A stretch of 21,832 nt of DNA from a virus (lineage: Duplodnaviria > Heunggongvirae > Uroviricota > Caudoviricetes), in the IMG/VR virus record IMGVR_UViG_2778261247_000008; one strand, 5' to 3'. This document shows, one piece after another, positions 1,280-21,603 of the stretch (positions are counted from its first letter, which is position 1; the number at the start of each line of letters is the position of its first letter). Under the pieces are notes generated by a model. The model had not been told where the DNA came from. It was given only the letters and a program-made list of their open reading frames with translations, and made no database searches. Made by a program: the position numbers and the translations under genes.

Positions 1280-1464
1280 CATTCCACGGACAAAAACAGA
1301 GAAAGGAAACGACAGAGGCCAAAAGGCCTGTTTTCAGCACCTGTCGTTTCCTTTCTTTTCAGGGGGTGTTTTAAATAAAAACATTAAGTTACGGAGAAGA
1401 AGAACGGAAACGCCTTAAACCGGAAAATTTTCATAAATAGCGAAAACCCGCGCGCCTTCCGCCC
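1280..1464 (-). other. cos region: cosB-like terminase binding sites plus candidate cosN at about 1453..1464
   Basis: Minus-strand reading CGCGGGTTTTCGCTATTTATGAAAATTTTCCGGTTTAAGGCGTTTCCGTTCTTCTTC...GAAAGGAAACGACAGGTGCTGAAAA... is nearly identical to the lambda cosB segment preceding Nu1 as recalled. The 12 nt immediately upstream (GGGCGGAAGGCG) occupy the position of the lambda cohesive end GGGCGGCGACCT. Confidence 0.6.
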
Positions 1465-2480: not shown

Positions 2481-2656
2481 CCTGTTTCTTCCACCCTCGC
2501 ACAGGACTGGCGAGCATGAGGGACAAACCCGCGAATCATTAGCGCGGTAAAAACCCGGTGTGCATCGTTTTTGATTATTTCCGCACACTCGCGCAGAGGA
2601 GTTCCCCGTCGGGCTACGGTCATGGTTAATGCGGAAATACGGCGACGATGCAGCGC
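2481..2656. repeat. direct repeat copy B (~175 bp)
   Basis: See copy A. Copy B is bracketed by the sopC-like palindromes at 2446..2465 and 2666..2685. Confidence 0.8.
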
Positions 2657-5597: not shown

Positions 5598-5620
5598 AAA
5601 AAAACCGCCATAAAGGCGGC
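5598..5620 (-). terminator. intrinsic terminator candidate (tR'-like) upstream of the methylase-lysis operon
   Basis: Minus strand: GCCGCC-TTTAT-GGCGG followed by TTTTTTT. Confidence 0.45.
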
Positions 5621-5658
5621 TTGTTGGCTGTTGGGTACAAAAAACCCAACTTAACAAA

Positions 5659-5687
5659 ACAATAACTAAAAACCGTAATTTTGCCAA
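5659..5687 (-). promoter_or_regulatory. candidate sigma70 promoter (possible late promoter)
   Basis: Minus strand TTGGCA-17 nt-TATTGT, followed by hairpin GTTGGGT..ACCCAAC and the terminator above; layout resembles lambdoid pR'-tR'. Confidence 0.3.
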
Positions 5688-5704
5688 GCTTTTTCGTTTT
5701 TGTG

Positions 5705-5726
5705 CTGTGCGACCACGGTCGCACAG
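5705..5726. other. sopC-like palindrome (candidate centromere site), immediately upstream of the candidate late promoter
   Basis: CTGTGCGACC-AC-GGTCGCACAG, 10-bp perfect arms. Confidence 0.55.
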
Positions 5727-5729
5727 TTT

Positions 5730-5957
5730 TTAGAAAGTTGCCTGCTTATATTCATCGGTCAAAGAATATCGACCAGACCCGCTACGCTTTGCAACCCCAA
5801 AACAGATCATCTGTTCGATGATAAATTCAACGGCAGCTTGACTCAAAAAACAGGCTTCGCTTAACTCTTTCAGGGAAATGCGTGGGTATCCACGCATAAC
5901 ACATTCCACACTCAGGGCCGCTTCAGTCATATTTCCACGAATTTCATTAATATTCAT
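5730..5957 (-). CDS. hypothetical protein (75 aa)
   Basis: ORF MNINEIRGNMTEAALSVECVMRGYPRISLKELSEACFLSQAAVEFIIEQ...; codirectional with the late block. Confidence 0.4.
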   Translation of the reverse strand: MNINEIRGNMTEAALSVECVMRGYPRISLKELSEACFLSQAAVEFIIEQMICFGVAKRSGSGRYSLTDEYKQATF

Positions 5958-5970
5958 AACGCCTCTCTAA

Positions 5971-6210
5971 TCAATCTTGAAACTGGAAATCAACATCAGC
6001 CATAAAGCGGTTCAACTCAGCCAGTTTTGGCCCCATAGTCCCAACTAAGCGACCAGCCAGTCGGTCTGCCAGGTTGGTACTGTTGAAACCATATTCCTTT
6101 TCGAAACGTTCAACCTTCTGCCACAACTCATACAGTTCGTTAGCTATCTCCGCAACGTCGTCGCGCATTTTTTCGTTACCTTGATAATTCATAATATCCT
6201 CCAAATTCAT
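5971..6210 (-). CDS. hypothetical protein (79 aa)
   Basis: ORF MNLEDIMNYQGNEKMRDDVAEIANELYELWQKVERFEKEYGF... Confidence 0.4.
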   Translation of the reverse strand: MNLEDIMNYQGNEKMRDDVAEIANELYELWQKVERFEKEYGFNSTNLADRLAGRLVGTMGPKLAELNRFMADVDFQFQD

Positions 6211-6281
6211 ATAGTTAGTGGGTTATTGCCCCTCAATGACACGAACTGTAACTCTGCCAAACGAACACATCCAGTGTTATT

Positions 6282-6299
6282 TTTCACTTTTTAGTGAAA
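6282..6299. promoter_or_regulatory. inverted repeat, candidate operator in the divergent promoter region upstream of the toxin-antitoxin pair
   Basis: TTTCACT-TTTT-AGTGAAA about 60 bp upstream of the toxin start. Confidence 0.3.
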
Positions 6300-6357
6300 T
6301 TTTTAATTTGCGCTTTTTTCTTGTTTTGGTGTATTTTATGGCTATGGAGGCTATAAT

Positions 6358-6669
6358 ATGTTTAACGTGATAACCCACCCTGCAGCACTGGATGAACTGC
6401 TTGAACTACCAGATGATTTGCGAGGTCGCATGACCAGATTAATTGAGCGACTGGAGAAGGAAGGCAACAAACTGAAGATGCCCCATAGCCGTGTAATAGG
6501 TGGAGGGCTTTTTGAACTACGAGTAGGGGATAAAAACATCGCAAGAACGCTGTACGCCTACGCGACTGGTAACGAAATTTATCTATTGCATGCATTTGTA
6601 AAAAAGACACAGAAAACACCGGTGAAGGCTATCGAAATCGCCAGAACTCGCCTGAAGGAGATGAACTGA
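6358..6669 (+). CDS. higB: type II toxin, RelE/HigB superfamily (Gp49-like)
   Basis: 103 aa; GGAGG RBS; toxin-first order with a 1-nt overlap (TGATG) to a downstream XRE-HTH gene. Sequence MFNVITHPAALDELLELPDDLRGRMTRLIERLEKEGNKL... fits the Gp49/HigB-like family as recalled. Confidence 0.7.
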   Translation: MFNVITHPAALDELLELPDDLRGRMTRLIERLEKEGNKLKMPHSRVIGGGLFELRVGDKNIARTLYAYATGNEIYLLHAFVKKTQKTPVKAIEIARTRLKEMN

Positions 6670-6956
6670 TGAAAGCGAAAGGCATCCCGTTTAACGAAGT
6701 AAAAGAAAAACTTCTCAACACTCCAGAAGCCATCAAAGGATATGAAGAGGCCGATAAAGAGCTGGAGATGGTCGAAATGTTATACGAAATGAGGGAAAGA
6801 GCAGGTTTAACGAAATCAGCTCTGGCTGAACGAATGGGGTTGCGACCGTCAGCCATCAGCCGCCTGGAAAGCAATCCTTTAGGGGCAAGTATGAAAACTT
6901 TGGCTAAATATGCTCATGCCTGCGGCGCAACCATCGATATTCGCGCTGTTTATTAA
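6669..6956 (+). CDS. higA: type II antitoxin, XRE-family HTH (HigA-like)
   Basis: 95 aa with HTH (GLTKSALAERMGLRPSAISRLE); translationally coupled to the upstream toxin. Confidence 0.7.
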   Translation: MKAKGIPFNEVKEKLLNTPEAIKGYEEADKELEMVEMLYEMRERAGLTKSALAERMGLRPSAISRLESNPLGASMKTLAKYAHACGATIDIRAVY

Positions 6957-6998
6957 TTAGACTCTTTTACTACCCCGTCCAGAAGGGCGGGGTGTGCA

Positions 6999-7202
6999 TC
7001 AATGATGTGAACGCTCAACAGCGATAGTTTTCTGACAATGCTGGGCAATCTCTCGCGACATGTTGATGAGTCGTGAAACCTCACCAATATGTAGGCTGGC
7101 TTCTGGAGAAGCCAGGGTGACGCTAACCAGATCCAGAACGGCGTCAATATCTCTCAAATTTGAATCGAGTTGTTCAAGAGTTGATACGGCTGCTTCAGAC
7201 AT
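6999..7202 (-). CDS. small hypothetical protein (67 aa) preceded by a LexA box; candidate SOS-induced effector such as an antirepressor
   Basis: ORF MSEAAVSTLEQLDSNLRDIDAVLDLVSVTLASPEASLHIGEVSRLINMSREIAQ.... Consensus LexA box about 40 bp upstream; GC hairpin 6973..6992 just downstream. Confidence 0.4.
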   Translation of the reverse strand: MSEAAVSTLEQLDSNLRDIDAVLDLVSVTLASPEASLHIGEVSRLINMSREIAQHCQKTIAVERSHH

Positions 7203-7238
7203 TAAATCTCATACCATTTAACTAAAAAAGGTTTTTTA

Positions 7239-7258
7239 TACTGTATAAAATTACAGGA
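7239..7258. promoter_or_regulatory. LexA (SOS) box
   Basis: TACTGTATAAAATTACAGGA has the exact CTGT-N8-ACAG core with an AT-rich spacer; lies in the intergenic gap between two minus-strand genes. Confidence 0.6.
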
Positions 7259-7284
7259 TAAAACTCAAACTTTACGGTCAATTT

Positions 7285-7527
7285 TCAATGAATTAACTGC
7301 GTAAACTGCTGTGTGACCCGATACTTATGCTCTCTCCCTATGCCACGATCAACTTTCTCAAGAAGTCCAGTACGGACAGCAGAATCAAGCATCCTTTTAA
7401 CAATTCTGCTATTTAACCCAACATCAAAAGCAAGCATCGAAGCGAAAACAAACCCATCACCACCATCAGAAAAGCTCTTTTCGCTCCGTTTTCGTATCAT
7501 TTCAAAAAGCAATGCCTTTTTATCCAT
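7285..7527 (-). CDS. hypothetical protein (80 aa)
   Basis: ORF MDKKALLFEMIRKRSEKSFSDGGDGFVFASMLAFDVGLNSRIVKRMLDSAVRTGLLEKV... Confidence 0.35.
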   Translation of the reverse strand: MDKKALLFEMIRKRSEKSFSDGGDGFVFASMLAFDVGLNSRIVKRMLDSAVRTGLLEKVDRGIGREHKYRVTQQFTQLIH

Positions 7528-19701: not shown

Positions 19702-21603
19702 TTAACCGAAATATGTCAGCCATGCTAACTGCATTGCTGACATGGGGCTGTTTGCACTGCCGGACCACGCATAATTCTGGCCATTATAATGAAACTCAAC
19801 AACGTATGAGCCATCACCAATATTTCTCACCGGCTTAAATACCGGCTTAGATACAGGCGAAGAAGGTGCAGGCGGTTGCTGTTCTTCTACGCTCTCTTCC
19901 TCTTCCTCTTCCTCTTCCTCTATCTCAATTTCGTCGTCATCCAGATCGTCATCCTCTGATAATTCATCCGCCAGTTCAGGTATTGCTTCCTGTTCTTCTT
20001 CGTCAGGCATAACGATTTCTGGAGTATCTATTTTCAGTTGCCATTGTCCGTTTTCGCCAACAAATTGCCCCAGAGCATCAGCAGCAAATTCCAGGTATCG
20101 ACTAATCATTGTTGGGCTAAATTTGAACGCTCTTAGAGTGCTGTTCGTGATTTTTATAGAGGGGTCCTGCTCTACCAGCTGCTTAACTGTGTTATGCAGA
20201 CGAACCCCGGCATCTCCTCTGGCGAATCCAGGCATTTCGTCATCAAGCTGCTGCAATGCTTCCAGCCTGGTATTTTCGTTTCCAGTATTTGGCCTCCATG
20301 TCTTTGAGAAGTTGGCCAGCTTGAATTGCTTATAGTGTAATTGAGTGTTTTCATCGTCATGGCCTAAAATTTCCATAAAGAAAACATCTTCATCTACATT
20401 TTTCCAACGGGGATCTACGCGGAAAAACATTTCATACGCAATGCGGGCATAAATAGCACGACTATCTTTATAAACACGGCGGTCATCTTTGAAAAATGAT
20501 TTAACCCAGGGGTTAAAAGCCTTTGCTAATATGGCATTAATACGTCCGTTTTCAGACCGTGTATCGTTATCTCCATAACCTTTAACGACATCATCAAAAT
20601 CAGATGCTGCTGGGCATGAGCGAAGTACATTTATTAAATAAACAAATGTTTTTGCCTCACATAATGTATATATTTTTCTGGTTATATCATCAGCAGTTCT
20701 TTTTTTAGCTTGACCTAAAAAATCAACGGTATACTTACCAGAAACAGTAAATGTACCTTGATACATAATCTCAATCATTCGTCTTCCTGACAATGCAGCA
20801 AGTGCAAATGCCAAAGGAGCCATACCTGAACGAGTGTTTAGATTATTTAATGTAGCAGGGCTATTTATAATATCGTAAATAGCTTGCATATATTTAGGGT
20901 AGTCAATGACCACTACGTTACGTTTCTTATTGTGTAGAACGTCCGCCCATCGTTGCTGGATAGATGCGCGTTCTGCAGGGCTTAGTTGGAGATGATAGAG
21001 AATCTCATGGTTAACCTTTAGCTGATTCAACTCCTCAAGCAAGGCAGACCCCTGCTGTAGTAATTTATATAAATAATCGCGCTTATCTTTCCAGTTATCA
21101 CTAATTAAATCAGAAATGGCAAATTGCCACTCTTTATATTTATTTGATAATTTTATTAACTTATTATTACTTTTATTATCACCAATTCTGATATTAGATA
21201 AATCTTCGGACAGAGGAATAATTAATTTTAACTTTGCCTGTAAAGCTGACATTCTCCGGCGAATATCGGCAGCAGGTAGAGAAAGCCATGACAATAGCTC
21301 CTCATTATATAAAGGATACTTTTCAGATAGGCGATATATATTTTTTTCAAAACTATGATGAAGTTTATCATCAAACCGTTTTCTGGCCCTGCTCATATAG
21401 GCATTGAATGTGTTGGCTGTAATTCTTTTTTCTAATCCTTTCCCCCGAAACTTTCGCTTGTCATTAAATAATGCATTTTTAAATTTTAATGCAACGGCCT
21501 TTATTTTTTTTGTTTTCTCCCCTTGAGGACGATCAGAGTTATCTATTGACTCAACATCGCTAACAAGTGAGTTTATTAATTCACCGATTTTTACTTTGCT
21601 CAT
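19702..21603 (-). CDS. telN: protelomerase (telomere resolvase) TelN
   Basis: 633 aa; N-terminus MSKVKIGELINSLV...NALFNDKRKFRGKGLEKRITANTFNAYMSRARKRFDDKLHHSF and C-terminus ...GDGSYVVEFHYNGQNYAWSG match N15 TelN (about 631 aa) as recalled. AGGAG RBS; telRL-like palindrome about 150 bp upstream. Confidence 0.9.
   Translation of the reverse strand: MSKVKIGELINSLVSDVESIDNSDRPQGEKTKKIKAVALKFKNALFNDKRKFRGKGLEKRITANTFNAYMSRARKRFDDKLHHSFEKNIYRLSEKYPLYNEELLSWLSLPAADIRRRMSALQAKLKLIIPLSEDLSNIRIGDNKSNNKLIKLSNKYKEWQFAISDLISDNWKDKRDYLYKLLQQGSALLEELNQLKVNHEILYHLQLSPAERASIQQRWADVLHNKKRNVVVIDYPKYMQAIYDIINSPATLNNLNTRSGMAPLAFALAALSGRRMIEIMYQGTFTVSGKYTVDFLGQAKKRTADDITRKIYTLCEAKTFVYLINVLRSCPAASDFDDVVKGYGDNDTRSENGRINAILAKAFNPWVKSFFKDDRRVYKDSRAIYARIAYEMFFRVDPRWKNVDEDVFFMEILGHDDENTQLHYKQFKLANFSKTWRPNTGNENTRLEALQQLDDEMPGFARGDAGVRLHNTVKQLVEQDPSIKITNSTLRAFKFSPTMISRYLEFAADALGQFVGENGQWQLKIDTPEIVMPDEEEQEAIPELADELSEDDDLDDDEIEIEEEEEEEEESVEEQQPPAPSSPVSKPVFKPVRNIGDGSYVVEFHYNGQNYAWSGSANSPMSAMQLAWLTYFG
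19893..19920. repeat. hexanucleotide tandem repeat (TCTTCC)x4 inside telN, encoding a poly-Glu run
   Basis: Four perfect TCTTCC units on the plus strand = (GGAAGA)n on the coding strand = EEEEEEEEE in the acidic linker. Confidence 0.85.

Follow-up and report, generated by a model that had tools for sequence, protein, structure and literature searches.

The window analyzed here is a 21,832-nucleotide stretch of Caudoviricetes DNA (IMG/VR record IMGVR_UViG_2778261247_000008), and our subject is a pair of small plus-strand genes within it, at 6358..6669 and 6669..6956. We argue, with a confidence that we would put at roughly 85%, that the pair is a Gp49/Tad-Ata (HigB1-like) addiction module, a toxin–antitoxin (TA) system of type II that belongs to an N15-like linear plasmid-prophage and works by the mechanism proposed below. 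How much of this is new? The pair itself is already known: it is the ortholog of a published TA system, and its exact sequence stands annotated in the databases, RefSeq labeling the identical DNA “type II toxin-antitoxin system RelE/ParE family toxin” with a helix-turn-helix (HTH) regulator. As the ortholog of the founding member of its own Pfam family, it carries little weight as a discovery. What we can add is an operator prediction for antitoxins of the N15 gp48 class, a defined boundary for the cassette in which the pair resides and a different TA pair in the same slot of a related phage-plasmid, which bears on how such elements acquire cargo for stabilization or defense.

In the mechanism that we envisage, a weak extended -10 promoter would give a short bicistronic mRNA. 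The RelE-fold toxin encoded by the first gene would enter the ribosomal A site and cut mRNA, bringing growth to a stop, and the coupled second gene would supply an Xre-type HTH antitoxin that binds the toxin and neutralizes it. A dimer of the antitoxin most likely also binds TTTCAC-N6-GTGAAA, just ahead of the promoter, thereby repressing the operon. Should the low-copy prophage be lost, the labile antitoxin would decay and not be replaced, the toxin would arrest the cured cell and the plasmid would, in the population as a whole, be stabilized. In this analysis, the weight is carried by protein family, gene order and coupling, predicted fold, catalytic residues, orthology with N15 and the conservation and covariation of an upstream dyad; for toxicity, stabilization and ribosome-dependent cleavage we draw on what has been published for orthologs and homologs, and we infer that the antitoxin is unstable, that it binds the dyad and that it represses from about -51.

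A Gp49-family toxin and its antitoxin partner

A toxin-first pair on the plus strand with a 1-nt overlap had been described in a first-pass annotation of this DNA, and the pair is just so arranged (Table 1). The overlap lies within a TGATG, in which the toxin's TGA (6667..6669) shares a base with the antitoxin's ATG (6669..6671). The same order, with an overlap of 1, 4, 8 or 11 nt, recurs in every one of the 21 loci examined. To judge from the TGATG overlap, translation of the antitoxin is coupled to the toxin gene.

What sort of toxin is it? Over its full length (positions 1–90 of 90), the Pfam Gp49 profile (PF05973) matches it with an E-value of 2.5e-29 and 101.6 bits against a cut-off of 23.9, and all of the listed homologs carry the same domain. 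The Gp49 family takes its name from gp49 of phage N15, to which the toxin is 92% identical (91% to Gp49 of phiKO2). Neither of two better known profiles fits: PF05015, for classical HigB, gave no match at E <= 0.1, and PF05016, for ParE, gave none; the NCBIfam RelE/ParE model stayed far below its threshold (15.1 bits vs 62.85).

The predicted fold points the same way. An AlphaFold2 model built on 39 homologs (mean predicted local distance difference test score, or pLDDT, of 89.6; predicted template modeling score, or pTM, of 0.83) has the beta-alpha-alpha element, the four strands and the C-terminal helix (at 89–102) of the RelE/ParE, or BECR, fold. Foldseek placed it nearest, among structures in the PDB, to Mycobacterium tuberculosis HigB1 on the ribosome (7nbu_Y; template modeling score, TM, 0.79) and then to Streptococcus pneumoniae HigB (6af4), the same two HigBs that a PDB search by sequence returned; YoeB and RelE came after them. 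ParE structures ranked low (TM 0.41–0.51), and HigB structures of Escherichia coli and Shigella reached TM ~0.53–0.58. On profile and fold together, we reject both a ParE-type gyrase poison and a classical HigB. The toxin is, in other words, a member of the Gp49/Tad/HigB1 branch of the RelE/ParE superfamily. The name “HigB/HigA-like” that the pair had first been given stands in this broad sense, with PF05973, the HigB1 fold and matches to both S. pneumoniae HigBA chains behind it, and falls in the classical one.

By analogy with its relatives, the toxin is predicted to be a ribosome-dependent mRNA endonuclease. A survey from 2025 describes the gp49 family (PF05973, ~22,000 members) as ribosome-dependent mRNA-degrading toxins encoded in toxin-then-antitoxin order (PMC11980606), and the Tad toxins and gp49 have been put in the RelE superfamily (PMC2701414). 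For HigB1, Mansour et al. (PMC9098466) proposed nine catalytic-pocket residues, which we read against the alignment of the two proteins from the PDB search. K58 corresponds to R45, E66 to E53, R68 to R55, N73 to N60, R77 to R63 (for which a one-residue shift is needed), F93 to F80, K95 to K82, Q98 to Q85 and K99 to K86. All nine are identical or conservative, and five of them (E53, R55, R63, F80 and K82) are invariant in the 39-homolog alignment.

The partner is an Xre-type HTH protein. Its residues 38–90 match Pfam HTH_3 (E 1.6e-12, 47.7 bits), it is 86% identical to N15 gp48 and its matches by sequence in the PDB are HipB, M. tuberculosis HigA2 (7ewc) and S. pneumoniae HigA (6af3_B).

No known system lies closer than N15 itself. 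There, gp49-gp48 likewise lies between gp50 and gp47, in the same orientation; the proteins have the same lengths (103 and 95 amino acids, aa), the genes the same 1-nt overlap, the dyad identical arms and the promoter a conserved block. The DNA differs: it has diverged so far that the window gives no megablast match to N15, the -10 hexamer is TATATT in N15 and TGTATT here, and ~380 bp of unrelated sequence separates genes 48 and 47 in N15, against 43 bp with a G+C-rich hairpin in the window. No functional difference between the pairs is apparent. Dziewit et al. 2007 (J Bacteriol 189:1983) reportedly included N15 gp49-gp48 among the loci of a Tad-Ata group that act as TA stabilizing systems. 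The toxin is said to be bacteriostatic in the abstract of that work, which reportedly also gives each of the two genes an upstream promoter of its own; a consensus scan of the window gave no plus-strand promoter inside 6358..6669. Passages in four later papers (PMC2701414, PMC3581621, PMC5906591 and PMC2654960) cite the 2007 study for the N15 pair as a stabilizing system.

The better studied relatives are more distant. M. tuberculosis HigB1 (Rv1955, “HigB-TAC”; 7awk, 7nbu), the closest solved fold and a member of the same Pfam family, keeps the proposed catalytic residues and the arrangement of a toxin followed by an Xre-HTH antitoxin. It is only ~27% identical, and it is chromosomal where our pair lies on a phage-plasmid; the window has no SecB-like chaperone gene after the pair, and the long C-terminal helix that both toxins have is shorter in ours, leaving the tRNA-contacting R117 of HigB1 without a counterpart. 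S. pneumoniae HigBA (6af3, 6af4) matches in sequence (toxin E 5.5e-5, antitoxin E 7.9e-3) and in fold (TM 0.71–0.75 to the toxin model), whereas its toxin has an N-terminal extension of ~30 residues and ~25% identity and its locus is chromosomal. Classical HigBA of Rts1/Proteus vulgaris (PF05015) shares the toxin-first order, a RelE-fold ribosome-dependent RNase, an Xre-HTH antitoxin and plasmid stabilization; it differs in toxin family, in its weaker fold match and in having operators that overlap the core promoter.

A predicted operator upstream of the pair

The inverted repeat TTTCACT-N4-AGTGAAA that had been noticed at 6282..6299 is exactly there, and it had been put forward as an autoregulatory operator. 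Is it one? Perfect 7-bp repeats with loops of 2–8 nt turn up in ~9% of random 165-bp regions of the same A+T-rich composition (P ~0.09), so that the repeat is not significant by itself; its support has to come from conservation and covariation. The full dyad occurs once in the window, and its arms are unchanged in N15 and phiKO2. Among 15 aligned loci that share the upstream layout, 12 have it at -76 +/- 2 from the toxin ATG, and it takes several symmetric forms: TTTCTCT/AGAGAAA in Xenorhabdus, TTTCTATT/AATAGAAA in LSJC7, TTTAGTT/AACTAAA in Erwinia and TTTCAT/ATGAAA on IncI plasmids. Paired cells make up 88.6% of the dyad, where shuffling gives 79.6% and sliding the partner columns never more than 54%; the covariation score of 0.297 (0.150 when shuffled) was reached by none of 500 shuffles, and three of the seven pairs have changes on both sides. 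The loci are related, and the shuffle control therefore overstates the significance; the slide control is fairer, and it is also clear.

The form of the site is also suggestive. Written equivalently as TTTCAC-N6-GTGAAA, with half-sites spaced 11 bp apart, it has the same TCAC-N6-GTGA core and the same spacing as ATATCAC-N6-GTGATAT, which M. tuberculosis HigA2 (Rv2021c) binds in electrophoretic mobility shift assays (PMC11205783). HigA2 is an Xre-HTH homolog of our antitoxin with a Gp49-family partner, and the recognition helices are similar (RPSAISRLES in the window, RQSRVSSIEN in HigA2). The HigA2 site differs in its flanking bases and in lying inside the higB2 coding region, where ours is upstream of the promoter, and the likeness of the sites is one of analogy. 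In Acinetobacter baumannii, a Gp49-type HigA acts as repressor at its own promoter, and the toxin serves as corepressor (PMC5906591). Together, the cassette boundary described below, the covariation and the mapped operator of a homolog suggest a functional dyad that forms part of the module, and we predict that it is the binding site of the antitoxin dimer, an autoregulatory operator. The operator claim is thereby strengthened by conservation, covariation, cassette edge and HigA2-like core, and the repeat taken alone adds little to it.

Between the dyad and the toxin gene, a promoter can be read by eye, with a weak -35 and an extended -10 (Table 1), from which transcription is predicted to start at ~6341..6344. 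The block TTG.G ... TGGTATATT stays in register across the loci, with TATAAT, TAGAAT or TAAACT elsewhere. Several observations speak against so tidy a picture. The consensus promoter scan did not call the proposed promoter at 6307..6335. The center of the dyad falls ~51 bp upstream of the predicted start, which is beside the core promoter and upstream of the -35 and not over it. The dyad is degenerate in three of the 15 loci (Edwardsiella tarda, Pseudocitrobacter and, partly, with one mismatch, the Klebsiella phages), and a search for a second operator, using each locus's own half-site from -140 to +330, found no consistently placed site.

Two further candidates were set aside. A dyad-like second site at 6317..6337 (15 of 21 bases by eye) is unconvincing in T-rich DNA, and the sole plus-strand promoter that the scan did call nearby (6188..6215, TTCATA-16-TATAGT) overlaps the start of gp50 and lies outside the region common to the replicons.

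Three side observations touch on the dyad. In Pseudocitrobacter vendiensis (locus L010, ~1420..1445) and E. tarda (locus L008, ~2515..2540), the left arm is TTTATC(T/C), as in Xenorhabdus bovienii, and the right arm is the N15-type AGTGA(A/G)A, so that the dyad is broken, and the proteins are >90% identical to the N15 type; recombination between operator types, or decay of the site, may explain these copies. The recognition helix and the dyad may vary together, in that LSJC7 and Erwinia differ in both, a suggestive pattern with too few independent cases to count as evidence. In Shigella phage 75/02 Stx (NC_029120.1; locus L005, 2406..2434), whose homologous pair is distant (toxin 47% identical), there is a perfect 16-bp palindrome, ATAACAAATTTGTTAT, which is different from the dyad and stands ~10 bp ahead of an ATG at 2432. 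Translation from there yields a full-length toxin, and the RefSeq start at 2498 appears to remove the first 22 residues.

The cassette and what it may do

The dyad, promoter, toxin and antitoxin make up a cassette of ~680 bp (6281..6956) whose edges can be read from other replicons. Homology with IncI-gamma and IncFIA plasmids starts at 6281, the first base before the dyad, and stops at 6954, two bases short of the end of the antitoxin stop codon (6956). In these alignments, then, the dyad is the left edge of a mobile cassette common to unrelated IncI and IncF plasmids. Matches to the cassette occur in 610 plasmids of PLSDB. An IncI-gamma plasmid of Escherichia fergusonii (locus L006, 2501..3176) and an IncFIA plasmid of Shigella boydii (locus L007, 2501..3176) carry it at 82–84% DNA identity, between IS66, IS110 and IS91 insertion sequences on large conjugative or mobilizable plasmids, and the S. 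boydii copy is near the effector gene ospE2. Among 5426 complete E. coli genomes, 16 have the cassette, on plasmids only and never on the chromosome.

The first-pass annotation had spoken of a pair “inserted” among the genes of the phage. As a description of a mobile cassette, this stands; as an event peculiar to this phage, it does not, for N15, phiKO2 and Klebsiella relatives already have the pair in the same gp50/gp47 slot. In Enterobacter phage MStein-2023a (Ravinvirus, CP115603.1; locus L090, 941..1900), the slot holds hicA and hicB instead. Here, the phage ceases to resemble the window immediately ahead of the dyad; a 60-aa HicA (PF07927) and a 143-aa HicB stand in place of dyad, promoter and gp49 toxin gene, and after the old TGATG junction a truncated, 63-aa remnant of gp48 survives. 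TA cassettes, it seems, are exchanged at this slot. One might go further and imagine 6281..6956 as a self-contained cassette moving between N15-like phage-plasmids and IncI/IncF plasmids, using the slot as a swap site, serving perhaps against other phages and regulated through a TCAC-N6-GTGA operator at the unusual position of about -51. We offer this larger picture tentatively and think it, as a whole, unlikely.

If the pair is a TA module, must addiction be its job? A different role can be imagined, in which it chiefly defends the lysogen by abortive infection or superinfection exclusion: on infection, the antitoxin would be depleted or sequestered, leaving the RNase free to bring translation to a halt. 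The case for such a role is indirect. A recent review makes the case that toxins with the RelE/ParE fold, the gp49 family included, widely serve in defense (PMC11980606), and the hicAB pair in the same slot of a related Ravinvirus resembles the variable cassette slots of prophages. Distant homologs in Stx prophages adjoin a Ren-like exclusion gene. The C-terminal half of the toxin also matches a domain of the PADLOC candidate NsnC (E 2.6e-7; partial, at positions 229–282 of 293); this is, however, a shared domain, the antitoxin gives generic HTH matches and no system model in PADLOC-DB 2.0 covers the pair. Our literature search found no published phage-challenge data for gp49/gp48, and the cassette is equally common on conjugative plasmids beside other stabilization genes, where addiction fits. 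Defense and addiction are not mutually exclusive, and defense as the main role seems to us improbable. Much further down the scale is a degenerate or domesticated module, its toxin harmless and its HTH protein chiefly controlling transcription of other genes, of the phage or of the host. In M. tuberculosis, the Gp49-family proteins HigB2 and HigB3 are non-toxic and are without K58, N73, F93 and K99 (PMC9098466), and HigA2 regulates several unrelated genes (PMC11205783). The four residues that HigB2 and HigB3 lack are kept in our toxin (R45, N60, F80 and K86), and this argues for an active RNase; the full dyad is present just once in the window, and passages citing the 2007 work have the N15 ortholog, at 92% identity, as a functional stabilizing system. 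We regard domestication as very improbable.

The dyad, too, has another reading: a weak intrinsic terminator or insulator hairpin, shielding the cassette from transcription arriving from its left. The GenBank record of N15 labels the homologous stem-loop “putative rho-independent transcription terminator,” on the strand of gene 49. TTTTT follows the hairpin on the plus strand, a position at the edge of a cassette would be a useful one for an insulator and several variants (IncF and IncI copies, for example) pair only through G-U in plus-strand RNA, which suits an RNA structure better than a DNA palindrome. Against these points, the stem consists of seven A/U-rich pairs worth just -6.2 kcal/mol, the T-run is down to three in N15 and interrupted in others, the terminator scan did not call it and, in the phage, there is no plus-strand gene upstream. 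The 11-bp spacing of the half-sites and the TCAC-N6-GTGA core fit, instead, the mapped operator of a homologous antitoxin. A terminator is, we think, decidedly unlikely.

To return to the addiction module, there are points that should temper our own case. Addiction may add little in N15-like prophages, which have a Sop partition system as well. Since HigB2 and HigB3 are harmless, membership in the Gp49 family is by itself no proof of toxicity. For SXT, moreover, deletion of the homologous pair brought no rise in loss of the element (PMC2654960), so that a pair which stabilizes a test plasmid may still play no real part in the element that it comes from.

The surrounding phage-plasmid

The element is, as the first-pass annotation had it, a linear plasmid-prophage (phage-plasmid), and one of the N15 type, because it encodes a protelomerase, an N15-type RepA, a CB-like HTH repressor and the Q antiterminator. 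The record is classed as Ravinvirus. From 5900 to 7300, the window is 100% identical to Escherichia phage YDC107_1 (CP025712.1), of that genus, and 99.8% identical to phage PhiR46_1.

Table 1. Positions of the features discussed in the text
Feature	Position	Strand	Description and basis
Upstream dyad	6282..6299 (arms 6282..6288, 6293..6299)	+	TTTCACT-TTTT-AGTGAAA; read from sequence
Predicted promoter, -35	6307..6313	+	weak, TTTGCG or TTGCGC; read by eye
Predicted promoter, extended -10	6327..6335 (TG 6327..6328, hexamer 6330..6335)	+	TGG-TGTATT, hexamer TGTATT; read by eye
Shine-Dalgarno, toxin	6346..6350	+	GGAGG; read from sequence
Toxin gene	6358..6669	+	103 aa, ATG start; N15 gp49 ortholog
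Shine-Dalgarno, antitoxin	6655..6660	+	AAGGAG; read from sequence
Antitoxin gene	6669..6956	+	95 aa, ATG start; N15 gp48 ortholog
G+C-rich hairpin	6972..6993		CCCCGTCC-AGAA-GGGCGGGG; in the 43-bp gap from antitoxin stop to convergent gp47
Terminator	5622..5602	-	strong, downstream of late promoter; between gp51 and methylase gene
Late promoter	5687..5659	-	TTGGCA-17-TATTGT; between gp51 and methylase gene
Sop-type centromere palindrome	5707..5724		18 bp, GTGCGACCGTGGTCGCAC; precedes late promoter
Protelomerase gene	19702..21603		four TelK/ResT domains

The annotated neighbors of the pair are all on the minus strand, as had been noted; to one side they run from the lysis genes to gp50/gp51, to the other from gp47 to Q/cro. 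The location first given for the pair, within the late-gene block, has to be revised. The late promoter lies ~670 bp to its left, and the pair, being upstream of that promoter, is therefore outside the late block; it belongs among the small genes downstream of cro-Q, in the early-right region and ahead of the late operon. The late-promoter region aligns base for base with the annotated promoter of N15 and is labeled “putative late promoter” in phiKO2, where the palindrome GTGCGACCGTGGTCGCAC matches the annotation “putative plasmid partitioning site.” Palindrome, late promoter and terminator (5602..5724) are all three kept in N15 and phiKO2, and their arrangement is reminiscent of a late promoter under Q antitermination, next to which lies a partition site.

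On the other side of the pair, the G+C-rich hairpin folds at -19.4 kcal/mol on the plus strand and -14.6 on the minus strand. It may end the transcript of the pair. As a bidirectional terminator it was dropped, since neither strand has a U-tract after it and it is not conserved; nor was it called by the terminator scan, and it lies outside the mobile cassette, homology with other replicons stopping earlier. The homolog of gp47 that faces the pair (6999..7202, minus strand) is a small protein without a Pfam match, which falls in its own PHROG family of unknown function and has a secondary match to an “anti-repressor” family (phrog_10889, E 6e-8).

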